Assembly (NCBI GenBank): GCA_027001995.1
Contig: JALTLO010000028.1
Coordinates: 1 to 25,948, forward strand
Length of the DNA: 25,948 nt
Direction: 5' to 3'
Source of the DNA: Planctomycetota bacterium
GTDB taxonomy: Bacteria > Planctomycetota > GCA-002687715 > DRQF01
How positions within the stretch are numbered: the stretch's first letter is position 1; the number at the start of each line of letters is the position of its first letter. The notes under the pieces were generated by a model. It was not told where the DNA came from. It saw nothing but the letters and a program-made list of their open reading frames with translations, and did not search any database. A program made the translations under genes and the position numbers. Below, piece by piece: positions 294 through 13,417 of the stretch.

Positions 294-713
294 TTAATCC
301 CAGTCCTTTCGGCCTCGGTCTTTCTTGATATCGCCCCGCTTCTTCTTGTTGGCAAGTCGCCTTTTCTTGGAACCCAAAGAGGGCCGTGTCTTCTTGCGGG
401 CCTTTTGAGTTTTGAGGGCATCTTGAAGAATCTTGATGAATCGTTCAATTGCCAAGCGTCGATTAGCAAGTTGGCTGCGTTCACTTTGGACGTCTATTCT
501 CAAGATTCCCTCTTTGCTAAGACGATGGGCGAGCTTTTCTAACAGGCGCCGCCGACGTCTCTCGTCGAGAGATGGAGACTCTTCGACATCAAAAATCAGT
601 GTAATCTTGGAAGCCGTTTTGTTTACTTTTTGGCCGCCAGGGCCACCACCACGGTTTTGTTCGAATACGAGTTCGTCTTCTGGAATGGTCAGCGAGTTAT
701 TGATGACGATCAT
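294..713 (-). CDS. arfB: Alternative ribosome-rescue peptidyl-tRNA hydrolase ArfB (YaeJ)
   Basis: 139 aa with GGPGGQKVNK (GGQ motif), RSQLANRRLA and a basic C-terminal tail RKKTRPSLGSKKRRL..KK. Confidence 0.95.
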   Translation of the reverse strand: MIVINNSLTIPEDELVFEQNRGGGPGGQKVNKTASKITLIFDVEESPSLDERRRRRLLEKLAHRLSKEGILRIDVQSERSQLANRRLAIERFIKILQDALKTQKARKKTRPSLGSKKRRLANKKKRGDIKKDRGRKDWD

Positions 714-2641
714 GGGGTTTTGGCCTTGATCAAGTAGAGGGTTTGCCCGCTTTGACCACGGACGGTACCATCAGAATCCTCGGCATAGACGCTCCACGAA
801 AGGTATTTAGGGCTGGCGTACTCATGGGACATTTCAGGGGAGAGAGCGGGCAAGGTTAGGATGACTTGCCAAGCGCCTTCTTCGATCTGTGTTCTTGACT
901 CGATTTTGGCGATGGTGTCCACCACGCGACCTTTCGGGTTGAACAAGCAGATACGATATTGATCAGCCAGGGAACCCCCATGTTTGATGACAAAAGTGGG
1001 CACCAATGTCGTGGGTTCGCTGGGGTCGATCACCAGGGTTGCCCCATCCCCTGGGGAGAGAGCTTCGATCTGGAATGTTTCGCCGCCTGTTCCTGGGCGT
1101 GGGTGAAGCAGGTTGAATCGGTAGCCCGCCTTAGGGTCAATGAATCGCATATCCAAGACCAGGGTGTCGTCGGTCTGAGCAAACACTTGGGGAAAAGGGG
1201 TGAGAAATTCCTTGATCGGGTCGATGGTGTCTCTGAGGACCAAGCGGGTGTGAATGTCATGGTCGAGGAAGGGCCGCATTGTGGCTGGCTGCAAGCAACC
1301 TGCGGCGCTGAACCCTCCTTGAAACCAAGTCATGTGCTGGAAGTCTAAGACGACGGCTTTGTCATATTCCTTCGCATCTTCTTGGGTCATGGGTTTGCGT
1401 AGCTCCATGAGGATCTTCTCTGTTCCCCGAGCGGCTTCTACATAGAGGTCTTGCAAGTGCCAGGATACGAACATCGACGGAAGCAAGATCAGTAGGCAGA
1501 TGCCCAAACCCCATCTTTTGGATCGTTGAGCTACTATGGCTCCAAAAAGTGCCACCGCAAACATAGGCACATAGCAGCCCCGGGTGTTGATAAAGCGTTC
1601 GTCTAAGCGACTCACCAGGCTCGCCAGCACAAAGGGGCCAGTGAGGAGAGTTGAAACCAAGAAGAAGCGAGGAAAGCCGCTTCTTGCCAAGAAGAAGATC
1701 CCAAGGCCAAGAGCAGAGATTGTTCCCATCCCCAGGAGGCTCTTGAGTGCGATCCGCATTCCGTCCTGGGGAATGACAACCTCCGTAGCTGGAGCGATGG
1801 CAGTTCTCAGCCCCGTCAGCAGGTTGTCAAGGCCATGATCTCGAAGGGTGTCAGCGAAGTTCTCGCTGCCATAGGCGTTGCTCCCTAACATGTCACCGAA
1901 GACATAGGCTCGTACAGCGATGTAGGCTCCCAGGGCCACGATGGCGGTTGAGAAGTTGATGATACGTCTCTTTTTCGTGACTTCACCCTCGTTTCCCCCT
2001 GGAAGCAAATCACAGAACGCCACTAAACCGAGGAAGAAGAGGCCAGATTCTTTGCTGAGCATGGATAGAGCGGCTAAGAAGACTGGTAGCAAACAGAGAG
2101 AGCGATGCTTCCACTTGACGATCAAAGCCATGGCTCCAAAAATCCAGCATAGACTGTCGGAGCGAGCGGATGACCAATAGGCCACTTGAGTCTGCAAGGG
2201 AGAGAACAAGAAAAGGGCTCCGACGAGGATCATCTGAAGACGACCTAAGTCAGGGAATAGGGTTCTCGCCAATTTCATGGCCAAGGCTGTGCCCAGAAGA
2301 TGGAGCAATATGTTGAGCTGTATGTAGAGCTTCGGGTTGATACCGGAGAGTTCGAAGCTCAGGCGAAAGCTCAAAGGAACTAAGGGGCGATAGAGCTCGA
2401 AACGATCAGTGGCCTTGTTGTAGAAATATGTCAAGACCTCCGAGGGATCGTCGGGGTCGAAAGACGCTCTTCCTTCTGGTCCATAAGTGGCGAAGCGGAC
2501 ATTGTGAAAGTCATCGGTCAAGAAGCCGCCACCTTCAAGGGGGCTCAAAAAGAAGTATCCCAAAAGAAGCAATCCGCAGCCAATCAAGATGTCACCCAAG
2601 CAGGACTTTCTCATAGGTTGTTTATAGCACTTTCGAAACAC
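710..2641 (-). CDS. Polytopic membrane protein, GT-C fold / TMTC-like (PMT-type) glycosyltransferase with an extracytoplasmic C-terminal domain
   Basis: DD after the first TM (FLTDDF), YRPL, NILLHL, SPLQTQVAYWSSARSDSL and SKES match the TMTC/PMT-like pattern. About 10-11 hydrophobic segments. The start may be ATG at 2614 rather than GTG at 2641. The stop overlaps the arfB start (ATGA). Confidence 0.65.
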   Translation of the reverse strand: MFRKCYKQPMRKSCLGDILIGCGLLLLGYFFLSPLEGGGFLTDDFHNVRFATYGPEGRASFDPDDPSEVLTYFYNKATDRFELYRPLVPLSFRLSFELSGINPKLYIQLNILLHLLGTALAMKLARTLFPDLGRLQMILVGALFLFSPLQTQVAYWSSARSDSLCWIFGAMALIVKWKHRSLCLLPVFLAALSMLSKESGLFFLGLVAFCDLLPGGNEGEVTKKRRIINFSTAIVALGAYIAVRAYVFGDMLGSNAYGSENFADTLRDHGLDNLLTGLRTAIAPATEVVIPQDGMRIALKSLLGMGTISALGLGIFFLARSGFPRFFLVSTLLTGPFVLASLVSRLDERFINTRGCYVPMFAVALFGAIVAQRSKRWGLGICLLILLPSMFVSWHLQDLYVEAARGTEKILMELRKPMTQEDAKEYDKAVVLDFQHMTWFQGGFSAAGCLQPATMRPFLDHDIHTRLVLRDTIDPIKEFLTPFPQVFAQTDDTLVLDMRFIDPKAGYRFNLLHPRPGTGGETFQIEALSPGDGATLVIDPSEPTTLVPTFVIKHGGSLADQYRICLFNPKGRVVDTIAKIESRTQIEEGAWQVILTLPALSPEMSHEYASPKYLSWSVYAEDSDGTVRGQSGQTLYLIKAKTP

Positions 2642-2932: not shown

Positions 2933-4624
2933 ATGAAGAGGGTGGAGTCCGAGAATATGCAAGCCAATGCTCTGTGGTTTATTCGGATGCGTTGGGCAGC
3001 GATCATTGTGGCCACAGCTTTGGTTCTCATGGCTACATTATGGTTCGATTTTTTGCCACCGAGACTCATTTTTCCTCTGTTGTCCATCGTCACGGGTCTC
3101 GGCATTCTCAACTTTGGCTATTCCTATCTGTCGAAGTACCCGGAGCATGCCGCCCGATCCGTAACAATGCAAATGTACGTCGATCTTTTGGCCCTCATGG
3201 GGATGTTGCATTTCTCTGGGGGGATCGAAAACCCTCTGGCCATAATCGGGCTTGTTCATGTCGTAATTGCCGGGATCATTGTGTCGCGGCGGCAGAGCTT
3301 TGTTGTGGCTGGTGTGAGTGGCGGATTGTTCGGCCTCTTGGCGTGGTTGGAGTTGACGGAAATCATTCCCCACTATACGTTCGAGATTTTTCCTCACGAC
3401 GGGGACGAAGAACTTCATGCAGCCCACGATGTGATGTACGTCATCACCCGGGTTCTGTTGCAGTTTGTCTTACTTTTCGTTTTTTGCTTCTTCGTATCTT
3501 CGATCACGCGGCGCTTGAGAGAAAGAGAGTCTCGGTTGCGCGAGATGACGATCCGGGCAATCAGGGAACGTCTGCTCCTTGAACAATCCCTGGAAACGAC
3601 AGGATCGGGCTTGCGCGTGATTGATGGCGACCTCAAGGAAATGTGGAGCAATGATCGGTGGCGTTCTCTTTTTGCTTGTTCGCCAGCGTCCCCAGTTCGT
3701 GCCGATCTTGATCATGTCGCCCGTGGCGTCATTGAACGAGGCAGCCTGATCGCATCGGAGTTCGTGGTTTCGGGGGGGGCGAAGGGAGAGAATGCGAAAA
3801 TTGTACAGGTAACGAGTGCCCGGATCGCCCCTGACTCGGAAGGAGTTTTTCTTGGTGTGCAATTGGCTCAAGACGTCACAGACGCCCACGAAATACAGAA
3901 TCAGATGATAAGGGCAGAGAAACTTGCAGCGGTCGGGGAACTGTCGGCCCAGATATCTCATGAGATAAACAACCCTGTGGGTATCATCAGCGCTAAAGCT
4001 CGCTTACTTCGTTCACGGAGAACAGAGGAAATGTCAGGGGCCGTCGCATCTGAAATCGACAAGATCATCATGTTGGCAGATCGGGTGGCAGGGGTGGCCA
4101 AAGGCTTCCTCGGTTTTGGTCGGCCTTCGCAACAGGAGCGAGTCTTGAGTGATGTCTGCACCATTGTTCAGGATGCATGTGAATTAGTGCAACACAAGGC
4201 CGACCGAAATGGCGTGGACTTAACAGTTCGATTGTCTGAGCAATGTCCAAATCTCTTAGCGAATCGGGATCAGTTGGAGCAGGTTTTCGTGAATCTTCTT
4301 CTTAATGCCATCGATGCCACCGAAAGAGATGGTACTGTTACTGTGTCGGTTTCATCCGAGATGTGGGATGCTGAAGAAAAGAGGTCTGTGGTCCAACTGA
4401 GGTTTGTTGATTCTGGAAAGGGAATTCCTGAGGGAGATGAGCAGCGCATTTTTGAGCCGTTCTTCTCAACCAAGGAAAAGGGGGAAGGAACCGGATTGGG
4501 TCTTTCAGTTTGTAAGACCCTGATCGATGAACATGGAGGCTCTCTGACGATTGAGAAGACCTCAGAATCAGGCTCGTGTTTCTTGGTTCAATTGCCGGTG
4601 AAAAACCCTTCGAGTGGAGTCTAA
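2933..4624 (+). CDS. Membrane-bound sensor histidine kinase (RegB/PrrB-like TM domain, NtrB-type kinase core)
   Basis: About 6 TM helices, WFIRMRWAAI and GGIENPL in the N-terminus. H-box SHEINNP, N-box QVFVNLLLNAIDA, G1 DSGKGI, F-box IFEPFFSTK, G2 GTGLGL. Confidence 0.93.
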   Translation: MKRVESENMQANALWFIRMRWAAIIVATALVLMATLWFDFLPPRLIFPLLSIVTGLGILNFGYSYLSKYPEHAARSVTMQMYVDLLALMGMLHFSGGIENPLAIIGLVHVVIAGIIVSRRQSFVVAGVSGGLFGLLAWLELTEIIPHYTFEIFPHDGDEELHAAHDVMYVITRVLLQFVLLFVFCFFVSSITRRLRERESRLREMTIRAIRERLLLEQSLETTGSGLRVIDGDLKEMWSNDRWRSLFACSPASPVRADLDHVARGVIERGSLIASEFVVSGGAKGENAKIVQVTSARIAPDSEGVFLGVQLAQDVTDAHEIQNQMIRAEKLAAVGELSAQISHEINNPVGIISAKARLLRSRRTEEMSGAVASEIDKIIMLADRVAGVAKGFLGFGRPSQQERVLSDVCTIVQDACELVQHKADRNGVDLTVRLSEQCPNLLANRDQLEQVFVNLLLNAIDATERDGTVTVSVSSEMWDAEEKRSVVQLRFVDSGKGIPEGDEQRIFEPFFSTKEKGEGTGLGLSVCKTLIDEHGGSLTIEKTSESGSCFLVQLPVKNPSSGV

Positions 4625-4626
4625 TT

Positions 4627-6015
4627 TTGGCAAGTACAAGACGCATCTTAATCGTCGATGATGAAGAACTCATGTTGGAGGTTTGTCGAGATAGTCTCTA
4701 CGGGCTGCCGGATGTTGAGATCGTGTGTCTGGCTGACAGTCGTCATGCCGCTCGTCGCGTAGAGTCTGAGCATTTCGATTTGCTGATTGCTGACATATGC
4801 ATGCCAGTTGTCTCTGGTGTCGAATTGCTTGCCAGGGCTCGAGCGGCAGATGAGGCCATTCGCGCTTTGATGATTACGGCGTTTCCGACGTTGGAAACTG
4901 CGGTGGAAGCTCTCAAGCTTGGAGCAGATGACTACATAACGAAACCACTGTTGCCAGATGATCTTCGCGCCACGGTTGTGCGAATCTTAGACGAAAAGAA
5001 GCTGAAAGAGGAAAATCGGCTCCTGGGGCGCCATGTAGAGCGGCCTTTCGTTCTAGAAGAATTGGTTGGAAGCAGTGCAGCGATCAAGAACATTTGCTCT
5101 ACGATTCAGCGACTGGCGAAATCATCGACGGACGTTCTGGTCACTGGCGATACTGGGACTGGCAAGGAACTTGTGGCACGGGCCATTCACAGAAATAGCA
5201 GCCGCAAAGACAAACGCTTCGTTCCCATCGATTGTGGTGCGATTCCAGAGACTCTGGTGGAGTCGGAGTTGTTTGGGCACGAGCGTGGAGCCTTCACCGG
5301 TGCGACCACAAGAAGTTTGGGACTGCTCGAGTATGCGAACGGTGGAACTGTTCTGCTGGATGAGGTTGGAGAACTCCCTTTAGTCATTCAAGCGAAACTT
5401 CTTCGCGTTCTGCAAGAACGGAAGATTCGACGCTTGGGGAGTAAAGAGGAGATAGAGCTCGATATTCGCTTGATCACTGCAACCAACCGGAATTTGGAGC
5501 AAGAGGTTAGGGCAGGGCGTTTTCGTTCTGATCTATACTACCGAATCAATGTCGCTGAGATCGTTGTGCCGCCCCTAAGGAAACGTCCCGAAGACATTCC
5601 ACTTCTCGTAGCTCATTTTGCCGAACAGTTCTCCGCTGAATCGGCCACACCTACGCCCTCTATCGACGATGGTGTTCTCGAAATCCTCTGCCGCTATCGT
5701 TGGCCAGGCAATGTGCGGGAATTGCAAAATCAGGTCAAGAGAATGCTCTCCATGGCTAGTGGTTCCGTGGTGACTGCGGATGATCTTCCTGACAAAATCT
5801 TGGAGAGAGCAAGCAACGAGGGCAGTGCCCCTGGGCGTGGTTTCTTCGCTAAGCGTGACAGTCACTTAGCTAATTTCGAGATCGACTACTTGACGGAACT
5901 CTTGGAACGCCACGGTGGGGATGTCACAAAGTGTGCGCAAGAAGCGCATATCCCTCGAGGTTCCTTCTATCGCTTTATCAAAAAGCACCATCTTGACCCC
6001 GCATCCTTCCGCTGA
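4627..6015 (+). CDS. Sigma-54-dependent response regulator (NtrC/AtoC family: receiver-AAA+-HTH)
   Basis: Receiver ILIVDDE...ADICMP...KP, Walker A GDTGTGKE, GAFTGA loop, LLDEVGE, WPGNVREL and a C-terminal HTH. Likely start is TTG at 4627 after GAGTGGAG, directly after the kinase stop (track gives 4576). Confidence 0.95.
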   Translation: MASTRRILIVDDEELMLEVCRDSLYGLPDVEIVCLADSRHAARRVESEHFDLLIADICMPVVSGVELLARARAADEAIRALMITAFPTLETAVEALKLGADDYITKPLLPDDLRATVVRILDEKKLKEENRLLGRHVERPFVLEELVGSSAAIKNICSTIQRLAKSSTDVLVTGDTGTGKELVARAIHRNSSRKDKRFVPIDCGAIPETLVESELFGHERGAFTGATTRSLGLLEYANGGTVLLDEVGELPLVIQAKLLRVLQERKIRRLGSKEEIELDIRLITATNRNLEQEVRAGRFRSDLYYRINVAEIVVPPLRKRPEDIPLLVAHFAEQFSAESATPTPSIDDGVLEILCRYRWPGNVRELQNQVKRMLSMASGSVVTADDLPDKILERASNEGSAPGRGFFAKRDSHLANFEIDYLTELLERHGGDVTKCAQEAHIPRGSFYRFIKKHHLDPASFR

Positions 6016-6023
6016 ATTTGATC

Positions 6024-6071
6024 TGTCACAATCTTGAGATTCTGTCGCAGGATTGAGTCACAATCTTGGGA
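6024..6071. promoter_or_regulatory. Candidate upstream activator (enhancer) sites for the sigma-54 activator
   Basis: GTCACAATCTTG occurs exactly at 6025-6036 and 6057-6068, with a related TGTCGCAGGATTGAGT at 6043-6058. Each resembles an imperfect TGTC-N8-GACA dyad, about 100-150 bp upstream of the -24 element. Confidence 0.6.
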
Positions 6072-6170
6072 AACATGGATCTCCTCATGGGGCTCCTTGC
6101 CCCTTCATATTCTCAATAACTCTATTCTAACTAATAACTTATGGACACGCGTTGGGGTCAACGCGTGAGG

Positions 6171-6186
6171 CGGCACATGGGTTGCG
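6171..6186 (+). promoter_or_regulatory. Sigma-54 (-24/-12) promoter for the redox operon
   Basis: CGGCACATGGGTTGCG fits YGGCAC-N5-TTGC with exact GG-N10-GC spacing. It lies between the sigma-54 activator gene and the ATG at 6265. Confidence 0.75.
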
Positions 6187-6207
6187 AATCTCTTCGACGA
6201 TCGTCGT

Positions 6208-6223
6208 TGGCACTCCAATTGAC
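6208..6223 (+). promoter_or_regulatory. Second, variant sigma-54 promoter-like element
   Basis: TGGCACTCCAATTGAC has a perfect -24 box and TTGA instead of TTGC at -12. Confidence 0.4.
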
Positions 6224-6264
6224 TTCCAATTGTAAGCAACGACGGCTGAGATTGGAGAAGAAGC

Positions 6265-7575
6265 ATGAAACGTCATGGAAGGCTTCGAGGGAGCATCATG
6301 ATACCTGCAATCCTCATGATTGTGGTGTTCACGGGTTCTTTTGCCCGGGCTCAAGATAGTGTGAGTCGAGAAGAATTTGATGCGCTCAAGGCTAGCTACG
6401 AAAACCTACTGAGTCGATTTAACAACATGTCGACCGATTTTGATGCTCTCAAGGAAGAGGGCTCGACGTCAGAATTGCGGGAAGAGCTTGAGGAGCTGAT
6501 TGAAGAAATTGAACAGGTAGATCTCAAAGCAATTGCCGGTCGACCAGGAACAACAGGTTTTCTGGCTGCGGGATTCGCCACAACCGGTTTTGTCGACTTC
6601 GATGACAATGACTCGACTTTCGGAGCGTCCTTCACTCCGGTGTTCCTTTGGAAGTTTACCGACAACTTGATGGTTGAAGCCGAACTCGACCTCAGCCTCG
6701 GTGACGGAACCACTGAGGTTGAACTCGAGTACATTCAGATCCTTTACACCGTCAATGACTACGTCACCGTCGGCGCAGGAAAATTCCTGACTCCGTTCGG
6801 AATGTTTTGGGAGCGATTGCATCCAAGTTGGATCAACAAACTTCCTGACGCTCCTTTGTCCATGCGTCACACGGGGCTTGTGCCACCCACGACAGTTGGC
6901 GTGCAGGTCCGAGGCGTCATCCCAATTGACTCGATGAAGCTGAATTACGCTTTCTTTGTTGGAAACGGCCCCAGTTTGGCGACGGAAGATCTCGATCACT
7001 TGGGCAATCTTGAGTATGAGAACTTCATTGACAACAATGGCAATAAGGCTTTCGGTGGTCGCCTTGGCTTTCAACCATTTCCCGAACTCGAGATCGGATA
7101 CTCCGCCTACTTTGCCAAAGTCGGTTCCAGCGGCAGTGAATTCAGAAACGTCGATGCCACCTTGCATGGCCCTTATTTGGCCTACGTGAGCCCAATCCCG
7201 GCTCTCGCTGGTTCTATCGATGTTCGCTTTGAGTGGACTTGGTCCGATGTCGACGACGCAAGCTACGACCTCGGGGGTACTGTGACGCCACCCATTGTGT
7301 TTGATAACCGGAGAAGTGGTGGATACGCCCAAGTGGCTTATCGCCCATCTCTCAGCGGTGTTTCGTTTCTTGAGGATCTTGAGTTCGTCTTCCGCTTCGA
7401 TCGGATCGACAATGCAGCTGGGCACCCAGACGCGATTGATCGCAACGGATACACCGTCGGACTTAACTATTGGCTTGAACCAAACTCGGTGGTGAAGCTC
7501 GCCTTTCGGTTTGATGATCCTGAGGGCGGTGAAAAGAACGACGGTCTGATGATTCAATGGACAGTTGGCTTCTGA
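6265..7575 (+). CDS. Outer-membrane beta-barrel (porin-like) protein with an acidic N-terminal coiled coil
   Basis: Signal peptide ending ARA-QD, acidic heptads (SELREELEELIEEIEQ), many amphipathic beta-strands (VTVGAGKFLTPFG, GGRLGF, YTVGLNYW) and a terminal Phe (IQWTVGF). RBS GGAG. Confidence 0.85.
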   Translation: MKRHGRLRGSIMIPAILMIVVFTGSFARAQDSVSREEFDALKASYENLLSRFNNMSTDFDALKEEGSTSELREELEELIEEIEQVDLKAIAGRPGTTGFLAAGFATTGFVDFDDNDSTFGASFTPVFLWKFTDNLMVEAELDLSLGDGTTEVELEYIQILYTVNDYVTVGAGKFLTPFGMFWERLHPSWINKLPDAPLSMRHTGLVPPTTVGVQVRGVIPIDSMKLNYAFFVGNGPSLATEDLDHLGNLEYENFIDNNGNKAFGGRLGFQPFPELEIGYSAYFAKVGSSGSEFRNVDATLHGPYLAYVSPIPALAGSIDVRFEWTWSDVDDASYDLGGTVTPPIVFDNRRSGGYAQVAYRPSLSGVSFLEDLEFVFRFDRIDNAAGHPDAIDRNGYTVGLNYWLEPNSVVKLAFRFDDPEGGEKNDGLMIQWTVGF

Positions 7576-7592
7576 TCTAGGAGGAAAAAACG

Positions 7593-7895
7593 ATGAATAC
7601 GAAACGAAACACAACACGATGGATCGTAAGTCTCTCCGGGCTCATGATGCTGATACTGGTGATTTCACTCACAGCCTGTCAGTCAACTGCGGCGGACGGA
7701 GAGATGGACGACTCCGACGAAATGGGGGCATCCGAGATTTGGGAGAGAAACTGTGCACGCTGTCATAACATTCGATCCCCTTCCACATTGAGCGACAAAC
7801 AATGGGAGACCGCAGTGATGCACATGCGGGTCCGAGCAAATCTGACTCCAAAAGAACAAAGACTGATCCTTGAACTGCTCAAGGCAGGAAACTGA
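7593..7895 (+). CDS. Monohaem c-type cytochrome lipoprotein
   Basis: Lipobox LTA-C (Cys29), CARCH haem motif and W..AVMHM with a candidate Met/His axial ligand. Strong RBS AGGAGG. Confidence 0.88.
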   Translation: MNTKRNTTRWIVSLSGLMMLILVISLTACQSTAADGEMDDSDEMGASEIWERNCARCHNIRSPSTLSDKQWETAVMHMRVRANLTPKEQRLILELLKAGN

Positions 7896-7908
7896 AAAGG
7901 AAAAAATC

Positions 7909-8427
7909 ATGAACGCTACAAGACTCACAATTATCTTTGCATTGAACGCTTTCCTGTTCTGCACAGCAGCCAGTGTCGGGACCGACTCGATGCAGGAAAA
8001 GCGGAAACCATGGCGTGTACCAAAGCGAGCTCTTCGCATGAAGAACCCGGTTAAGCCCAGTGTCAAAGGACTGGCCTTGTCCAAGAAACTCTACATGAAG
8101 GAATGTGCCTCTTGTCATGGGAAAGACGGGAAAGGAAAGGGATCTGCGGCCAAGGGGCTTGAGGTGAAACCAGCAGACCACACGAACCCAGACATGAACA
8201 AAGAAGTTGATGGATCGATTTTTTGGAAGATCAGAATTGGACGTCAGCCAATGCCTTCCTTCCGCGGCAAACTCAAGAAAGAGCAGATGTGGGGATTGGT
8301 CAACTACATCCGGACATTGCACAAGAAGCCAGCGACCTCGAAGGACAAGAAGAAACCGAAAGTCGACAAGAAGAAGCCAGCAAGCAAAGGAGAGAAAAAG
8401 AAACCAGGGACCAAAGGTTCCAATTAG
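7909..8427 (+). CDS. Exported class I monohaem cytochrome c with a Lys-rich C-terminal tail
   Basis: Signal peptide from ATG 7909 (RBS AAGGA; track start 7870), NPV..., CASCHGKDGKG, distal MPSF and W.LVNYIRTL. Confidence 0.9.
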   Translation: MNATRLTIIFALNAFLFCTAASVGTDSMQEKRKPWRVPKRALRMKNPVKPSVKGLALSKKLYMKECASCHGKDGKGKGSAAKGLEVKPADHTNPDMNKEVDGSIFWKIRIGRQPMPSFRGKLKKEQMWGLVNYIRTLHKKPATSKDKKKPKVDKKKPASKGEKKKPGTKGSN

Positions 8428-8484
8428 CACAGTAGATCGATCTCGAATTGACCAATCGCTAATCGGTCGGAAAAGGAGCTTATC

Positions 8485-9000
8485 GTGACATCTCGGAAGT
8501 GTTTTTGGTTCGTCGTTGGGACTATCGTGGTTGGCACGATCGCGGGGTGGTATGTGTCTCCAGCGGTGACCGGTGGGCGTGAGCATGTCATTGACATCGT
8601 AGCCCGCCAATACGAATTTGAACCGTCTCAGATCTACGTCAACAAAGGTGACACGCTTCGATTGAAGTTCCGATCAGAGGATGTCGTCCACGGCTTCTTT
8701 CTGGAAGGGCATGACGTCAACTTGTCAATTCTGCCGGGGCAAGAGGTGGTGCAACTCAAGACATCCGGTGGGCATGACGGCCCACCGGAATTCGCTCGAG
8801 AAGTTGTTGTTGAGGCGAAGAGAGTTGGGAAGTTTCGTTTTCGTTGTTCGGTTACCTGCGGCAACCTTCATCCATTTATGCAAGGCAAACTTGTGGTGGG
8901 CTCGAATCGTGTCTTGCATGCGGGGGTCGGCATGATCTTAGGGCTAGCAGCGGCCATGTTGTTCATTGGATTGAAGTGGAGGGGAAGCGATGAAACGTAG
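8485..9000 (+). CDS. Membrane-anchored cupredoxin with a CuA-type site (cytochrome c oxidase subunit II-like)
   Basis: SEDVVHGF and CSVTCGNLHPFM (H...C-x3-C-x3-H-x2-M), with hydrophobic helices at both termini. GTG start with AAGGAG RBS. Confidence 0.85.
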   Translation: MTSRKCFWFVVGTIVVGTIAGWYVSPAVTGGREHVIDIVARQYEFEPSQIYVNKGDTLRLKFRSEDVVHGFFLEGHDVNLSILPGQEVVQLKTSGGHDGPPEFAREVVVEAKRVGKFRFRCSVTCGNLHPFMQGKLVVGSNRVLHAGVGMILGLAAAMLFIGLKWRGSDET

Positions 9001-9481
9001 AATCGAAGAGCTCTCGGCCAAGGAAATTCTCGCTCTAGCCATTCAAATTGAAATTTCGAATCAGTCTCGCATGGAGGCATTTGCGTCGGCATTTAGGGGC
9101 TTCTCCCCGACAACGGCGGCGATGTTCGATGAGCTGGCTGTTGAAGAAGAAGAGCACAAATTGATTCTTGAGAATAAGTTTCGGACTCGATTCGGAGACG
9201 AAATACCACCGATGGACGAGTTTGAAATTGAGGGTGTTATCGAGGCCATAGATATCGATCAATCCGAGTCATTGATCTTCGATGGCATCGATGCGCAAGA
9301 GGTCTTGCGCCAAGCTCGTTTGGCAGAGCAAAACGCTCAGGAGTTCTATCGTTTGGCGGCTGATGCCACTGACGACGAGGAATTGTGTACTTTGTTTCGC
9401 GAATTGGAAGAAATGGAAGGTGAACATGAGTCAGGACTCTCTGAATTAGGAGAGACCTTTCACCGTGGAGAATCAGAATGA
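8990..9481 (+). CDS. Ferritin-like / rubrerythrin-family di-iron protein (no rubredoxin domain)
   Basis: LALAIQIE...EEEEH and AEQNAQEFY...EMEGEH give the duplicated E...ExxH four-helix-bundle pattern. No signal peptide. Confidence 0.85.
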   Translation: MKRRIEELSAKEILALAIQIEISNQSRMEAFASAFRGFSPTTAAMFDELAVEEEEHKLILENKFRTRFGDEIPPMDEFEIEGVIEAIDIDQSESLIFDGIDAQEVLRQARLAEQNAQEFYRLAADATDDEELCTLFRELEEMEGEHESGLSELGETFHRGESE

Positions 9482-10971
9482 GCCAGCAATCATGTGCAAA
9501 ACCTGAACCATCCGGTATGAAACAGCAGGTTCTGGATTCCAAAACAAAGGGGCGCATCGATCTTCTGCGACGCTTTCCTGCTCTTGGCCCCGTGTTGAAG
9601 CACCGATGGTTTCAATTCGCCCTGATTTTTCCGAATCTAGTGTTGTTTGCTCTGTTTCTTGTTGCTGGGATCTATGGGACGCCAGTTGGCAACCGCAATA
9701 TTATCATCGTCTTTGTTTGGATCGTTTGGTGGTTTCTTTTGATCGCCTTGATGGTGCCATTCGCCTCGCGGATTTGGTGTGCTATGTGCCCATTTCCCTT
9801 CATTGGCGAATGGGCCCAGCGCGGAGCCCTTGTCTCGGCGAAAGTGGGCAAGGCTGTTGGACGATGGAGTGGTTTGAGCCGAGTGATCGGCAAAAATCGG
9901 TACTTCGGTTTCAACATTCGCTGGCCCAAAGCGCTGAGTAACATTTGGATGCAGAATATTGGCTTTCTTGGCTTGTGTACTTTCAGCGCGCTCTTCCTGA
10001 CGCGGCCCATCATCTCAACTTGGGTTTTGGGAAGCCTTGTTGTTCTCGCAACTGTCCTTCACGTCATCTTTAGGCAAAGGGCGTTTTGCAACTATGTGTG
10101 TCCGGTGAGCGGTTTTCTGTCTTTGTATTCCATGACTTCCAAACTTGAGGTTCGATCTCGTGATTCGGACGTCTGCTTGAAGTGTAAGACGAAGTCGTGC
10201 TTGGCGGGCAGTGAGACCGGTTGGGGATGTCCTTGGTCGATGTATCCCAGCAAGATGGATCGCAATAACTATTGCGGCGTTTGCACTGAATGTATCACCA
10301 CTTGTCCCCATGACAACATGACGATCAATTTACGTCCATTCGGGTCTGACACGAAGATGAAGGGTTATGATGAAGCTTGGAAAGCATTCATCATGTTGAC
10401 CCTAGTGGCGACATATTCCGTACTTTATCTTGGGCCTTGGGGCTTCCTTCGAGACTGGGCGAATGCCCCGGAGTCCAATGAATGGGGTGGCTTTGGTGTC
10501 TACGTCTCTTTTATGTGGACCACAGCTCTCTTGTTTGTTCCTGGAGTATTTGCGCTGGCAGCTTGGGCTGGTGGAAAATGGGCCAAGAGTGAAACCGTCA
10601 GCTTTAAGAAACAGTTTCTGGCGTTTGCCTATACCCTCGTTCCGTTCGGCCTCCTGATATGGATTGCTTTCAGCACAGTTCTGGTGTTTACCAATTGGTC
10701 CTACATTGCCAATGTTGTTTCTGATCCTTTCGGCTGGGGGTGGGATCTCTTTGGCACTGGGTCTGTGGAATGGCGACCATTCATGTCGGAGTACGTTGTC
10801 TTTCTTCAGATGGTCTTGGTCGCCGTTGGACTCTACTTCGCATTGAAGTCTGGGTGGAAGGCGGCTCTTGGTTTGCACGAACAACCGAAGGTCGCTCTTA
10901 GGGCATTCCTGCCCACCGGCTTCCTATTGTCCGCTCTGGCCATCCTCTTTATCGTCTTGTACGCGGGGTGA
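9478..10971 (+). CDS. Polytopic 4Fe-4S membrane protein, NapH/MauN/NosH/YccM-like
   Basis: WCAMCP and FCNYVCP motifs, CLKCKTKSC...GCP and canonical CGVCTECITTCP, with about 9-10 TM helices. ATGA overlap with the upstream gene. Confidence 0.88.
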   Translation: MSQQSCAKPEPSGMKQQVLDSKTKGRIDLLRRFPALGPVLKHRWFQFALIFPNLVLFALFLVAGIYGTPVGNRNIIIVFVWIVWWFLLIALMVPFASRIWCAMCPFPFIGEWAQRGALVSAKVGKAVGRWSGLSRVIGKNRYFGFNIRWPKALSNIWMQNIGFLGLCTFSALFLTRPIISTWVLGSLVVLATVLHVIFRQRAFCNYVCPVSGFLSLYSMTSKLEVRSRDSDVCLKCKTKSCLAGSETGWGCPWSMYPSKMDRNNYCGVCTECITTCPHDNMTINLRPFGSDTKMKGYDEAWKAFIMLTLVATYSVLYLGPWGFLRDWANAPESNEWGGFGVYVSFMWTTALLFVPGVFALAAWAGGKWAKSETVSFKKQFLAFAYTLVPFGLLIWIAFSTVLVFTNWSYIANVVSDPFGWGWDLFGTGSVEWRPFMSEYVVFLQMVLVAVGLYFALKSGWKAALGLHEQPKVALRAFLPTGFLLSALAILFIVLYAG

Positions 10972-10975
10972 AATC

Positions 10976-11971
10976 ATGAAAACTACAACTTCAGAAATTA
11001 TTGCTTCCGTTCTTGTTGTCGGAGGACTGGCTGCGGCTATCTTCTTGCCGTTTGTCTATGAGAAATATCGTCTCGCGCCAAACACGGCGGAGCAGACCAT
11101 CGTTTTGACGGGAATTGCAACCAATGGTGTTTGGACCGACGAGGACGTGACCGCCGTCGGCTATGAAGGCCATGTCTATTCTGCGGCGAAACCTCGTGTC
11201 GAAGTAGGCAAACCGGTTGTCCTTCGCTTGCGCAGCGCCGACGTTGTGCACAGTTTCTATCTTCCAGAATTGGGTTTGGGTCCGGCTGAAGTCTATCCTG
11301 GCCACGAAGTTGTTTTGCGATTTATTCCCAAGATAACGGGCGTTTTCGAGTTCTACTGCACCACACTCTGCGGCAATTGTCATTACTTCATGCGGGGGCT
11401 CTTGGAGGTCGTTGGACCTGGGAGTGGGGAGAAAGTTCCTTCCTACTTGGATGTGGCATCAAGTCAAGAAGAAACCTTGGCGCAGGACACGAAGGCGCTT
11501 CCGGTCTGCGATCATGATCACGAATTCTCCCCGCTTCCTGATCGTGTTGTCGAAAGAGGAGCTGCGCTATTTTCATCGCTCTCTTGTTACACTTGTCATG
11601 GTGTCGATGGAGTTGGCGGCATTAAAAACTTTAACGCCACGACCAATCCGGTTCCTTCCCTCGATATCGCTGCTGAGCGGTTGATTCTCTTTGAACCAGA
11701 AGAGATTGCCACGGTGATGAACATGTTTGAGGAGGGGAAGTCTTTTGAGGCAGCGCTCAAGAAGCCACCCTTTGAGGCTTACGGTGAGTTCCATGAACAG
11801 TTGGAGCTCTATCGTAAGACTATTCGGGAGGGTATTACTGCCCAGAAGAAAGACCCGAACGGCGTGGCACCTCCCCTCAACATGCCTGTTTGGCGAGACC
11901 ATGTGACTGATGAGCAGGTCGATGAAATCATCGCTTACTTGTTGAGTCTGTACAAGTTTGAAGAGGACTGA
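10976..11971 (+). CDS. CuA cupredoxin-cytochrome c fusion (caa3 CoxII-like architecture)
   Basis: N-terminal TM from ATG 10976 (track start 10868 overlaps the previous gene), SADVVHSF, CTTLCGNCHYFM, then CYTCH and distal PLNMP..W...IIAYL. Confidence 0.85.
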   Translation: MKTTTSEIIASVLVVGGLAAAIFLPFVYEKYRLAPNTAEQTIVLTGIATNGVWTDEDVTAVGYEGHVYSAAKPRVEVGKPVVLRLRSADVVHSFYLPELGLGPAEVYPGHEVVLRFIPKITGVFEFYCTTLCGNCHYFMRGLLEVVGPGSGEKVPSYLDVASSQEETLAQDTKALPVCDHDHEFSPLPDRVVERGAALFSSLSCYTCHGVDGVGGIKNFNATTNPVPSLDIAAERLILFEPEEIATVMNMFEEGKSFEAALKKPPFEAYGEFHEQLELYRKTIREGITAQKKDPNGVAPPLNMPVWRDHVTDEQVDEIIAYLLSLYKFEED

Positions 11972-12259
11972 AGTCTTGTTCAAGCGGTTTGTTTTCAGGA
12001 ACTGACGAGTTGGGAGATGTGGGCGGAAACGAGCGCTTTGTTGTGGCTCCAAGATATTCATTGTCTCTTGAAGTGATGGCCGGATTTTCACCAACAGAAA
12101 TGCCATTTGAGGCCCTGTCAGAGAAATTCCTGGTTTTTTATTCATGTGGGTAAAGTTTCATAAGGCATCTTCCGATTTCACAAACTGGACCTGATTCGTT
12201 CGCTCATTCTCATGTTGGGAGCAACGCAATGGGGCAAGGGAACGAATGAGGAACGGACG

Positions 12260-13417
12260 ATGCCGAATAACAGATTGATAGACTCTCTGGAAAATCACTC
12301 CCAAACCCTTTTGCAAGTGGAATCTGTGTCTCGGGGAGCCGTTCATGGGGCGATCCAGGTAGCCAACGAAGTTGAGCGTGAGGTCATCTTGCGGGTTCTC
12401 CCTGAGCAAGTTGGCGCCGATCTTTCTTCTGGGGGGTACTTAGGGTTCCGCCACCTAGCTGATTTTGTCGACCATGTGTCAATCCGTGATACGGGAGGCT
12501 TCGTTTCATTCTGCCGGGCGGGTTTTGCCCATCTTGTTGAGGGTGCCAACTCTCTCTCTGATGTCAAACGTGATCTTTGTCGCGATTTGGATACTGGCAT
12601 TTCTTTCTTTCATGTTGACGCCAGCAAGAAGCGTGGTGCTCGACGATCTCGGTGTGAAGAGATTGCTCTCACTGTCGAGCTGATGACTTACATCTCTGTG
12701 GAAGCGGCATCCCGTGACCTTGAGGTCATCTTCGAGGTCGGAGGGGGAGGGGCCCTTGCCAATGCTCATGATGTTGAATGTTTCGCCGACTATTTGGATG
12801 CACTTGTGGACGCCTGTGAGGTGGCTGGCATTGATTCGCCCAAGTTTGCCGCCGCATGGACAGGATGCGAAATCAAGGAGTTCTCCAACGTGGCCTCAGG
12901 GCCCAGTCCGTTTTCCTTTGCGGAAGAAGCCAGGGAAGAGACGATGTTGGCGGAGTCTGCAGACATCGCTGGCTTCCGAGGGATTTCTCTGGTGGCCCAC
13001 GATTGTGACTACTTGGGACGGGATTTCTGGCGCCAACTCTATGGCAAGGGTATTGCTATTGCCTGCGTGGGTGAAGAACTGGGAGTTCATGAGACCAAGG
13101 TGTTCCTGAAGCTCTGCGATGCCACAAGATCCGCCTCTATTCGCCAAGACTTCCTGGCCTTTTCCCTGGCATCTGGCGTTTGGCGAGAGTCTGTAACCTT
13201 GGGGTCGACCAGTACTGAAAGCGAAAAGGCAATTTTGGCGGCTCACAAATTATTTGCCACAGAAACCTTCTCAGAGATTAAGATGCGCCTTGAGCGGCGG
13301 TGTGGAGCCGCCGGAATTAGTCTGGACCAGGCGTTATGTGAAGCCCAAAGTACTCGTTTGGTGAGCCTTCTACGGCACTTAGGATCGCGGTTCGAAGTAG
13401 AAGCCTTGATTCACTAA
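12260..13417 (+). CDS. GatZ/KbaZ-like (tagatose aldolase non-catalytic subunit / tagatose-phosphate epimerase fold) protein, divergent
   Basis: The motif order QV...GGYLG, FFHVDAS, FEVG, AHDCDYL, VGEELGVHET parallels the family motifs QV..GGY, IHLD, GTE, AHSTDY, VGP. Likely ATG at 12260 with GAGGA (track 12212). Confidence 0.55.
   Translation: MPNNRLIDSLENHSQTLLQVESVSRGAVHGAIQVANEVEREVILRVLPEQVGADLSSGGYLGFRHLADFVDHVSIRDTGGFVSFCRAGFAHLVEGANSLSDVKRDLCRDLDTGISFFHVDASKKRGARRSRCEEIALTVELMTYISVEAASRDLEVIFEVGGGGALANAHDVECFADYLDALVDACEVAGIDSPKFAAAWTGCEIKEFSNVASGPSPFSFAEEAREETMLAESADIAGFRGISLVAHDCDYLGRDFWRQLYGKGIAIACVGEELGVHETKVFLKLCDATRSASIRQDFLAFSLASGVWRESVTLGSTSTESEKAILAAHKLFATETFSEIKMRLERRCGAAGISLDQALCEAQSTRLVSLLRHLGSRFEVEALIH

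Follow-up and report, generated by a model that had tools for sequence, protein, structure and literature searches.

The window analysed here is a contig of 25,948 nucleotides from a Planctomycetota bacterium (GenBank assembly GCA_027001995.1, contig JALTLO010000028.1, positions 1 to 25,948 of the forward strand), on which seven closely packed genes encode a porin, two small cytochromes c, two CuA copper proteins, a di-iron protein and a NapH-like iron-sulfur membrane protein (Table 1). The operon is a mosaic that joins two independently conserved, apparently undescribed modules, one built around the porin and the other around the NapH-like protein. Open reading frame (ORF) positions, family scans and motifs confirmed the seven genes and the cofactor motifs named in an initial annotation, which a model had made from the sequence alone; the scans agree with its labels, with several matches falling under curated cut-offs. 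The start codons at 7909 and 10976 were picked by hand from ribosome-binding sites, and signal peptides were assigned by eye, not by a predictor. The distances between successive genes are, from 5' to 3', 17, 13, 57, −11, −4 and 4 nucleotides. No match to CoxI, NosZ, NapA/NapG or multihaem families was found among the 20 main ORFs scanned in the window, and the GC content of the operon (~50%, against 51.7% for the genome) gives no sign of transfer.

Table 1. Features of the operon and of the region upstream of it (positions in the window)
Feature	Position	Strand	Basis
Membrane sensor histidine kinase with six-transmembrane-helix PilS-like domain; probable operon regulator	2933..4624	+	Pfam; link to operon inferred from adjacency
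NtrC-family sigma54 response regulator; probable activator	4576..6015	+	Family scans; adjacency and upstream sites
15-nucleotide direct repeat (6025-6039 and 6057-6071, 93% alike); candidate activator binding sites	6025..6071	+	Function inferred
Two sigma54-like -24/-12 matches (6171-6185 and 6208-6222)	6171..6222	+	
Module 1: 16-strand outer-membrane porin, OprP/general-porin fold, without haem motif	6265..7575	+	Model, fold search
Module 1: small monohaem lipoprotein cytochrome c; predicted barrel-mouth plug	7593..7895	+	Family alignment, complex model
Module 1: exported class I monohaem cytochrome c	7909..8427	+	PF13442, E 1e-12
Module 2: CuA-motif cupredoxin (CuA1), hydrophobic N- and C-terminal segments	8485..9000	+	Motif CSVTCGNLHPFM
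Module 2, optional: ferritin-like di-iron protein, no apparent signal peptide	8990..9481	+	Rubrerythrin-family match
Module 2: NapH-like Fe-S membrane protein	9478..10971	+	Fer4_5 / TIGR02163 match
Module 2: membrane-anchored CuA domain with C-terminal monohaem cytochrome c, caa3 subunit II-like layout	10976..11971	+	CoxB-like CuA motif CTTLCGNCHYFM

Sequencing data bear on the continuity of the locus. One contig of a sequencing run (X1) bridges the regulator, the porin, the lipoprotein and the start of the exported cytochrome (5050-8194), and a second contig of the same run bridges the junction of the two modules, between the exported cytochrome and CuA1 (8274-8815). None of the pieces listed for this run covers the entire stretch, and three further runs (X2-X4) cover it in pieces only. 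The best-covering run is labelled as a hydrothermal vent metagenome and may be the source sample.

The porin was modelled as a 16-strand barrel (predicted local distance difference test score, pLDDT, 88.6), and a fold search with that model returned general porins and OprP/OprO among its matches; a sequence search returned no solved relative. The protein carries an N-terminal acidic coiled coil (net charge −11 over residues 30-95) and a conserved long loop (R184, H186, W189 and N191-P194). A crude strand-parity count assigned 10 conserved basic and 8 acidic positions to the pore, a mixed charge that gives no choice between cation and anion substrates. At least 494 relatives were found, and an alignment-based scan of metagenome contigs gave at least 524 confirmed matches, with the family common in those from soil and aquatic samples; a single-sequence scan of such contigs gave none. 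The lipoprotein cytochrome has a C54xxC57H58 haem motif, an invariant M78 and a near-invariant H77, and its lipobox Cys29 is present in 76% of 76 family rows; compared with solved structures it matched only generic CxxCH stretches, apart from weak full-length rows for SorB (E 0.03) and for a dihaem cytochrome. The exported cytochrome is very basic (net +30, with a Lys-rich tail); among the top 120 porin homologues, 10 carry its domain as an N-terminal fusion in front of the coiled coil.

The three genes of module 1 also occur together elsewhere. Among 80 metagenome porin loci (median length 4 kb, 21 of them 8 kb or longer), the lipoprotein cytochrome is present in 70 and the exported cytochrome in 58. 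Genes resembling ActA, NrfD/ActC or cytochrome b lie in 10 of the 80, so that module 1 elsewhere also sits by quinone-reactive complexes; its commonest other neighbours are regulators (cyclic-nucleotide-binding in 13 and PocR/AraC in 10 of 86 loci). A model of the porin with the lipoprotein cytochrome scored 0.77, against 0.19 for the best of three controls, and thereby passed a mark that 116 of 157 solved pairs attain, as do 2 of 215 mismatched ones (a rough calibration, for which we used our own alignments). Runs of the model share at least 93% of their contacts, with a partner pLDDT of at least 69. The lipoprotein touches the short porin turns at 133, 165, 273-274 and 406-407 and the conserved loop at 183-190; if both porin termini are periplasmic, as in standard porin topology, these contacts lie at the periplasmic mouth, and the lipoprotein cytochrome is predicted to plug the barrel there. 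No like complex was found by sequence among solved structures, and a generic likeness may account for the pass. With their consistent adjacency, their fusions and this modelled contact, the proteins of module 1 belong to the general kind of porin-cytochrome complexes. The host genome holds a paralogous porin and lipoprotein cytochrome pair (C25:3587-5391; 26-28% identity), without an exported cytochrome, near divergently transcribed nuoABC-like genes.

Among the nearest known likenesses to module 1 is Cyc2, a 16-strand, OprP/OprO-like barrel with one haem c, whose haem domain has been predicted as a plug at the periplasmic mouth (Keffer 2021, PMC8406198). In Cyc2 the haem c is fused to the barrel and a PxFAR[QK][TY] motif precedes CxxCH, whereas here barrel and cytochrome are separate genes, the porin has no CxxCH and the lipoprotein lacks the motif (PMC8406198); module 1 differs further by its coiled-coil stalk and its second cytochrome. 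Alignment of the porin to 15 Cyc2-motif neighbours gave an hhalign probability of 0.3%, a figure to be read with the poor conservation of Cyc2 barrels. The MtrAB/MtoAB/PioAB, OmbB-OmaB-OmcB, PCC3 and PCC4 conduits likewise combine genes for a porin with periplasmic and lipoprotein cytochromes, and PCC3 and PCC4 clusters also include an inner-membrane redox protein, there with paired HX13H haem b motifs, which the NapH-like protein lacks (PMC5566968, PMC6344600). In contrast to such multihaem conduits, the cytochromes of the window are all monohaem (one motif per domain), and the barrel is small and matches no MtrB family.

The central protein of module 2, the NapH-like protein, has 497 residues and about nine long membrane helices (model pLDDT 92.2). 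In an alignment of 73 rows 11 Cys are invariant, those of two CxxxCP motifs included, and no His is; the invariant set comprises a C101xxC104P105-P107 variant, C204xxxC208P209, C233, C241, C251, C266, C269, C272 and C276. No solved relative was found by sequence search, and fold searches with the model returned generic helical bundles only, showing neither a new nor a known fold. Fusions to CuA1 in related loci imply that the N-terminus is cytoplasmic, in which case all Cys motifs would probably face the cytoplasm. We take the clusters of E. coli NapH to be cytoplasmic as well; one paper puts NapH clusters in a periplasmic domain (PMC3475470). NapGH and NosGH share with the window the two CxxxCP motifs and Fe-S Cys in a membrane protein and, in some genomes, the setting in operons of periplasmic reductase type; they differ in having four helices and ~300 residues (PMC3475470, PMC8139620). 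No NapG was found in the host genome, and the fixed partners of the NapH-like protein are CuA proteins.

Both cupredoxin domains carry the full CuA motif (H ... CxxxCxxxHxxM) and lack the Glu that the CoxII of this genome has in its motif (CAELCG), and they match CoxB and the NosZ CuA domain weakly. The di-iron protein matches the rubrerythrin family (E 8.5e-13) and the MbfA N-domain (2.9e-24), with conserved ligands E21, E53, H56, E113, E143 and H146; it has no rubredoxin domain and so is not a full rubrerythrin, and Ala116 occupies, in 18 of 18 rows, what we take from the presumed rubrerythrin numbering to be the position of the extra Glu.

Module 2 is widespread. The best 80 loci of 442 confirmed NapH-like relatives in species genomes, many of them cut by contig ends, span Acidobacteriota, Planctomycetota, FCPU426, Chloroflexota, Bacteroidota, others and one archaeon. 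Two CuA motifs are present in 51 of these loci, one in 14 and none in 15; five of the latter, whose sequences were inspected, have a fused cupredoxin with a variant motif lacking the last Met. In 20 loci one polypeptide combines a CuA1-like domain with the NapH-like protein, and a haem motif occurs in 49 of 57 downstream CuA proteins. The di-iron protein is found in only 17 of the 80, so that the initial annotation's placing of it at the end of the chain does not hold as an obligatory arrangement. A subfamily from Bacteroidota and Pirellulales (L046, L065, L069, L072 and L073) has the cupredoxin-NapH-like fusion with a Met-less CuA variant (CHVWCGPMHAFE-type) and no second CuA gene.

The genes beside module 2 vary from genome to genome. 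Cyc2-motif porins are the commonest partner (16 of 80 loci), and one locus (L020) has a decahaem cytochrome with an MtrB-family barrel (MtrAB). Four planctomycetal loci (L014, L017, L023 and L030, in the last of which the second peroxidase fell outside the listed range) carry an AioAB-like molybdenum enzyme and dihaem peroxidases co-oriented with module 2, a combination that corresponds to the idrABP1P2 signature of iodate reductase (Reyes-Umana 2021, PMC8692401) and makes these sets candidate iodate-reductase-type systems, by gene signature and not by a tree. The published idr cluster was noted as lacking a dedicated quinone oxidoreductase (PMC8692401), and module 2 is a candidate for the dedicated quinol dehydrogenase of iodate respiration in these four loci. 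The window itself has no idrABP1P2 genes, and the closest AioA-like matches in the host genome reach 25-27% only. CuA1 carries a fused cytochrome c in L017, L023 and L030, and L023 also encodes a fusion of a peroxidase with a multicopper-oxidase-like domain. Another locus (L027:1-9365) has an operon of the type II dimethyl sulfoxide reductase family in which a haem b gamma-like subunit is fused to CuA and followed by two NapH-like genes, and in L018 and L022 a bd-like oxidase stands beside module 2. A GltD-like flavo-Fe-S oxidoreductase lies between the NapH-like and CuA-haem genes in L036 (6266-8116) and hints at a connection to NAD(P)H in the cytoplasm. In Chloroflexota the neighbours are instead genes for PCYCGC, DUF1573 and thioredoxin-like proteins and for Cu-ATPase.

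The same survey bears on whether the operon is a displaced accessory, or a missing subunit, of a haem-copper oxidase, nitric oxide reductase or nitrous oxide reductase. The CuA motif is shared with haem-copper oxidase subunit II and NosZ, here encoded neither with a subunit I nor within NosZ, and the weak CoxB and NosZ matches, the five COX1-family genes of the genome and cox3/cox4 genes near L020 could be read in that sense. The COX1 family is nevertheless represented in one of the 80 loci, by a qNor-like gene ~9 kb away; NosZ gave no match among 297 of 306 neighbour cluster representatives (seven of more than 900 residues left out there, two scanned separately) and occurs in 7 of 50 host genomes; it was not found in the genome studied here. 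The five COX1-family genes of the host genome (92% complete), typed from their sequences and neighbours, lie on other contigs. One belongs to an A-type oxidase, for which a separate subunit II is encoded; of the other four, one is of cbb3 type, two resemble qNor and one resembles cNor, and these have their own partners or need none. The idea is thus largely refuted and we regard it as very improbable, in keeping with the initial annotation, which had set the operon apart from such enzymes.

The initial annotation had also treated the seven genes as one system, and here the comparison went the other way: none of the 80 NapH-like loci has a member of the porin family, and none of the 80 porin loci, most of them short, has the NapH-like gene, so that the seven-gene set is not conserved together, an outcome that the annotation itself had named as speaking against its reading. 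The join was also missing from 13 further genome regions, among them those of three of the four closest members of the phylum by NapH-like profile (one of the three apparently L014 again) and four further porin regions. The porin family occurs elsewhere in the genome of 6 of 50 module 2 hosts; five other genomes among 301 of the phylum have the porin, none of the five with a close NapH-like match. Genomes of the same order lacked both the NapH-like gene (0 of 22) and the porin (0 of 17), and the operon is therefore patchily distributed. In a quick tree of 73 rows (eight partial or frameshifted loci excluded), the window's NapH-like protein falls in a 17-row group of which 12 members are Cyc2-linked and one is MtrAB-linked (Shimodaira-Hasegawa-like approximate likelihood-ratio support 94, below the tool's star level). 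Given these 12 relatives, module 1 would fill the slot that Cyc2 usually takes, and on the simplest reading, in which we infer the order of events, it replaced Cyc2 and a blue-copper gene.

A join seen once could be a chance one, in which two unrelated mobile cassettes came under one promoter, module 1 serving as a redox-sensing channel and module 2 oxidising quinol on behalf of other periplasmic enzymes. The loci and regions without the join, the same-order genomes without either gene, the porin-lipoprotein paralogue pair that stands alone on C25 and the regulators that are module 1's commonest other neighbours would all suit such an origin. Set against it are gaps that are tight throughout (57 nucleotides at the junction), the position of module 1, which lies upstream where sister loci have Cyc2, MtrAB or another porin, and a departure from the usual order of module 1 genes by which the exported cytochrome comes to adjoin CuA1; we consider a chance assembly quite improbable.

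The organisation suggests instead a one-electron relay across the envelope, assembled from the two modules. Module 2 would be a quinol dehydrogenase of the NapH type, with membrane-anchored CuA proteins in the place of NapG and electrons passing from quinol to the NapH-like protein, then to CuA1 and to the CuA-haem c protein, with the di-iron protein as an optional partner on the Fe-S face. Module 1, with which these carriers would have to make contact, would be a split Cyc2 analogue: the lipoprotein cytochrome, a protein apart from the 16-strand pore, would sit at the periplasmic mouth, and the second, exported cytochrome would be tethered at the coiled-coil stalk. With one haem only, placed at the inner end of a narrow pore, the conduit could reach no more than small soluble substrates, as has been argued for Cyc2 (PMC8406198). 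The final acceptor would most likely be small, soluble, of high potential and able to enter the pore, for example chelated Fe(III), Mn(III), Cu(II) or an oxyanion.

A relay across the envelope, running in one direction or the other, is probably what the operon encodes. As to direction, outward flow seems somewhat likelier than uptake. Module 2 accompanies gene sets with the idrABP1P2 signature, and the published idr cluster was noted as having no dedicated quinone oxidoreductase (PMC8692401). Transfer from quinol to CuA is downhill in potential, and transfer from CuA to quinone uphill. NapH, for its part, oxidises menaquinol for a periplasmic adapter (PMC3475470). A relay from quinol to the outside is accordingly our tentative choice. 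More tentative still is the fuller proposal, possible and short of probable, that module 2 is an undescribed, widespread quinol:CuA oxidoreductase with exchangeable partners and module 1 an independently evolved split Cyc2 analogue, the two forming together an outer-membrane-to-quinone wire without a multihaem protein. The initial annotation had imagined such a wire with electron uptake among its roles; its parts can indeed span the envelope, and uptake is not favoured over export.

Several observations weigh against this relay. The NapH-like protein matches TIGR02163 with 33.7 bits, where the cut-off is 213, and is at best a weak Fer4_5/NapH-like match; with Cys motifs probably in the cytoplasm and no invariant His, no cofactor that would carry electrons across the membrane can be pointed to. 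The porin-lipoprotein model was built without haem and shows confidence, not binding. A blue-copper-like protein present in 21 of the 80 NapH-like loci is missing from the window, and many loci (in Chloroflexota, the archaeon and Thermoanaerobaculia) have no outer-membrane partner and carry copper-handling genes instead. The modules have been seen joined in this genome only, and their juxtaposition could be recent and without physical coupling. Finally, the known activity of Cyc2, the oxidation of Fe(II), points inward.

The same hardware could indeed run inward, a soluble Fe(II)-like donor being oxidised at the pore and its electrons passing through the cytochromes and CuA proteins to an aa3 or cbb3 oxidase, with the NapH-like protein as a branch to quinone. 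Here the model, already drawn on by the initial annotation, would be the Acidithiobacillus rus operon (Cyc2-Cyc1-Cup-CoxBACD-Rus), which shares with the window an outer-membrane haem porin, a periplasmic cytochrome, copper carriers and a CuA protein, and which differs in that the window operon has no CoxA or other oxidase subunit, ends in an Fe-S membrane protein and has a porin other than Cyc2 (PMC10654088). Cyc2 as the commonest partner of module 2 fits inward flow, as do a host genome with A-type and cbb3-type oxidases and no Cyc2-like or MtrAB-like match by the queries used, and the hydrothermal vent label of the best-covering run. COX1-family genes occur in 69 of 78 host genomes (not counting L022 and L062, which come from the genomes of L018 and L046), a tie that is weakly informative, since at E<=1e-100 such a gene is found in 8 of 12 Bacteroidota hosts and also in 35 of 100 other genomes of that order. 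The uphill step to quinone would have no visible proton-coupling element, and the iodate-reductase-type loci point outward. The function of cluster 3 Cyc2, which may or may not include the neighbouring Cyc2 proteins, has been called the most uncertain (PMC8406198). On balance we think the inward direction unlikely.

A further account places the operon in metal uptake or cofactor supply, with the NapH-like protein as a CcoG-like cupric reductase or Ftr accessory that sets the Cu/Fe redox state and the di-iron protein receiving or buffering iron. CcoG, a cupric reductase, is an Fe-S membrane protein that looks related (PMC8267372), and CcoG and Ftr systems likewise pair an Fe-S membrane protein with copper proteins (PMC8267372, PMC11966278); here, in contrast, there is no FTR1 permease, no cco operon and no CcoG family match listed, and the cupredoxins have a binuclear CuA motif. 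Near module 2, genes for SCO (5 of 80 loci), Cu-ATPase (4), NosL (2), multicopper oxidase (2) and PCuAC (1) are found, along with a PCYCGC protein in 21 loci, and a few loci have FtrD-like PF10080; the presence of SCO, PCuAC and Cu-ATPase would also be explained by the needs of two CuA centres and three haems. The match of the di-iron protein to the N-domain of the MbfA iron exporter and the persistence of module 2 in monoderm-type hosts also suit metal supply. FTR1 is, however, missing from the 92% complete genome and from 297 neighbour representatives (the second batch at 1e-12), co-transcription with catabolic molybdenum enzymes and MtrAB is left unexplained, and the upstream region suggests sigma54 two-component control (Fur and CsoR boxes were not searched for). 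We hold this account to be rather improbable.

The sensor kinase and sigma54 activator encoded upstream probably regulate the operon. Using what we take to be the sigma54 -24/-12 consensus, we found four matching sites in the window against 2.06 expected, a number reached in 16 of 100 shuffles and so not significant window-wide; two of the four fall in the 249-nucleotide gap before the porin. A sigma70 and terminator scan gave matches at or below chance, and no RNA dataset containing the stretch was among the matches listed.

Other genes of the window and genome may be recorded here. Just 3' of the operon, an ORF of 401 residues (12212-13417) matches nothing in Pfam or NCBIfam and lacks a genome paralogue, and a membrane protein of 643 residues at 710-2641 (minus strand) has no family match and two genome paralogues at 27-32%. 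Elsewhere in the genome (G000), contigs C22, C197, C193 and C182 carry a pair of cNor-like genes and both of the qNor-like ones, NosZ being absent; several multihaem proteins are encoded as well, those on C182 with 10, 15 and 17 motifs, and tandem porin-like genes lie beside the C22 qNor gene. A molybdopterin-family match with one in-frame TGA (C197:63067-64335, minus strand) is possibly a selenocysteine formate dehydrogenase. Queries for NapG (TIGR00397), like those for NosZ and FTR1, gave no match in the genome.

The literature searched, outside which lay most subscription papers and supplements (for example the neighbourhood supplements of PMC8692401 and PMC8406198), gave no description of module 1 or module 2. 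A porin family paired with small monohaem cytochromes would escape the screens made for extracellular electron transfer, whose targets are Cyc2 motifs or multihaem cytochromes. To our knowledge CuA is normally found only in oxidases and nitrous oxide reductase, and module 2 puts it in a third setting. Module 2 also suggests a route, open to testing, by which Idr-type reductases and Cyc2 proteins whose function is uncertain could be linked to the quinone pool in lineages remote from the model organisms, and would, if the proposal is true, add an alternative to bc1, alternative complex III and NapC/NapGH.

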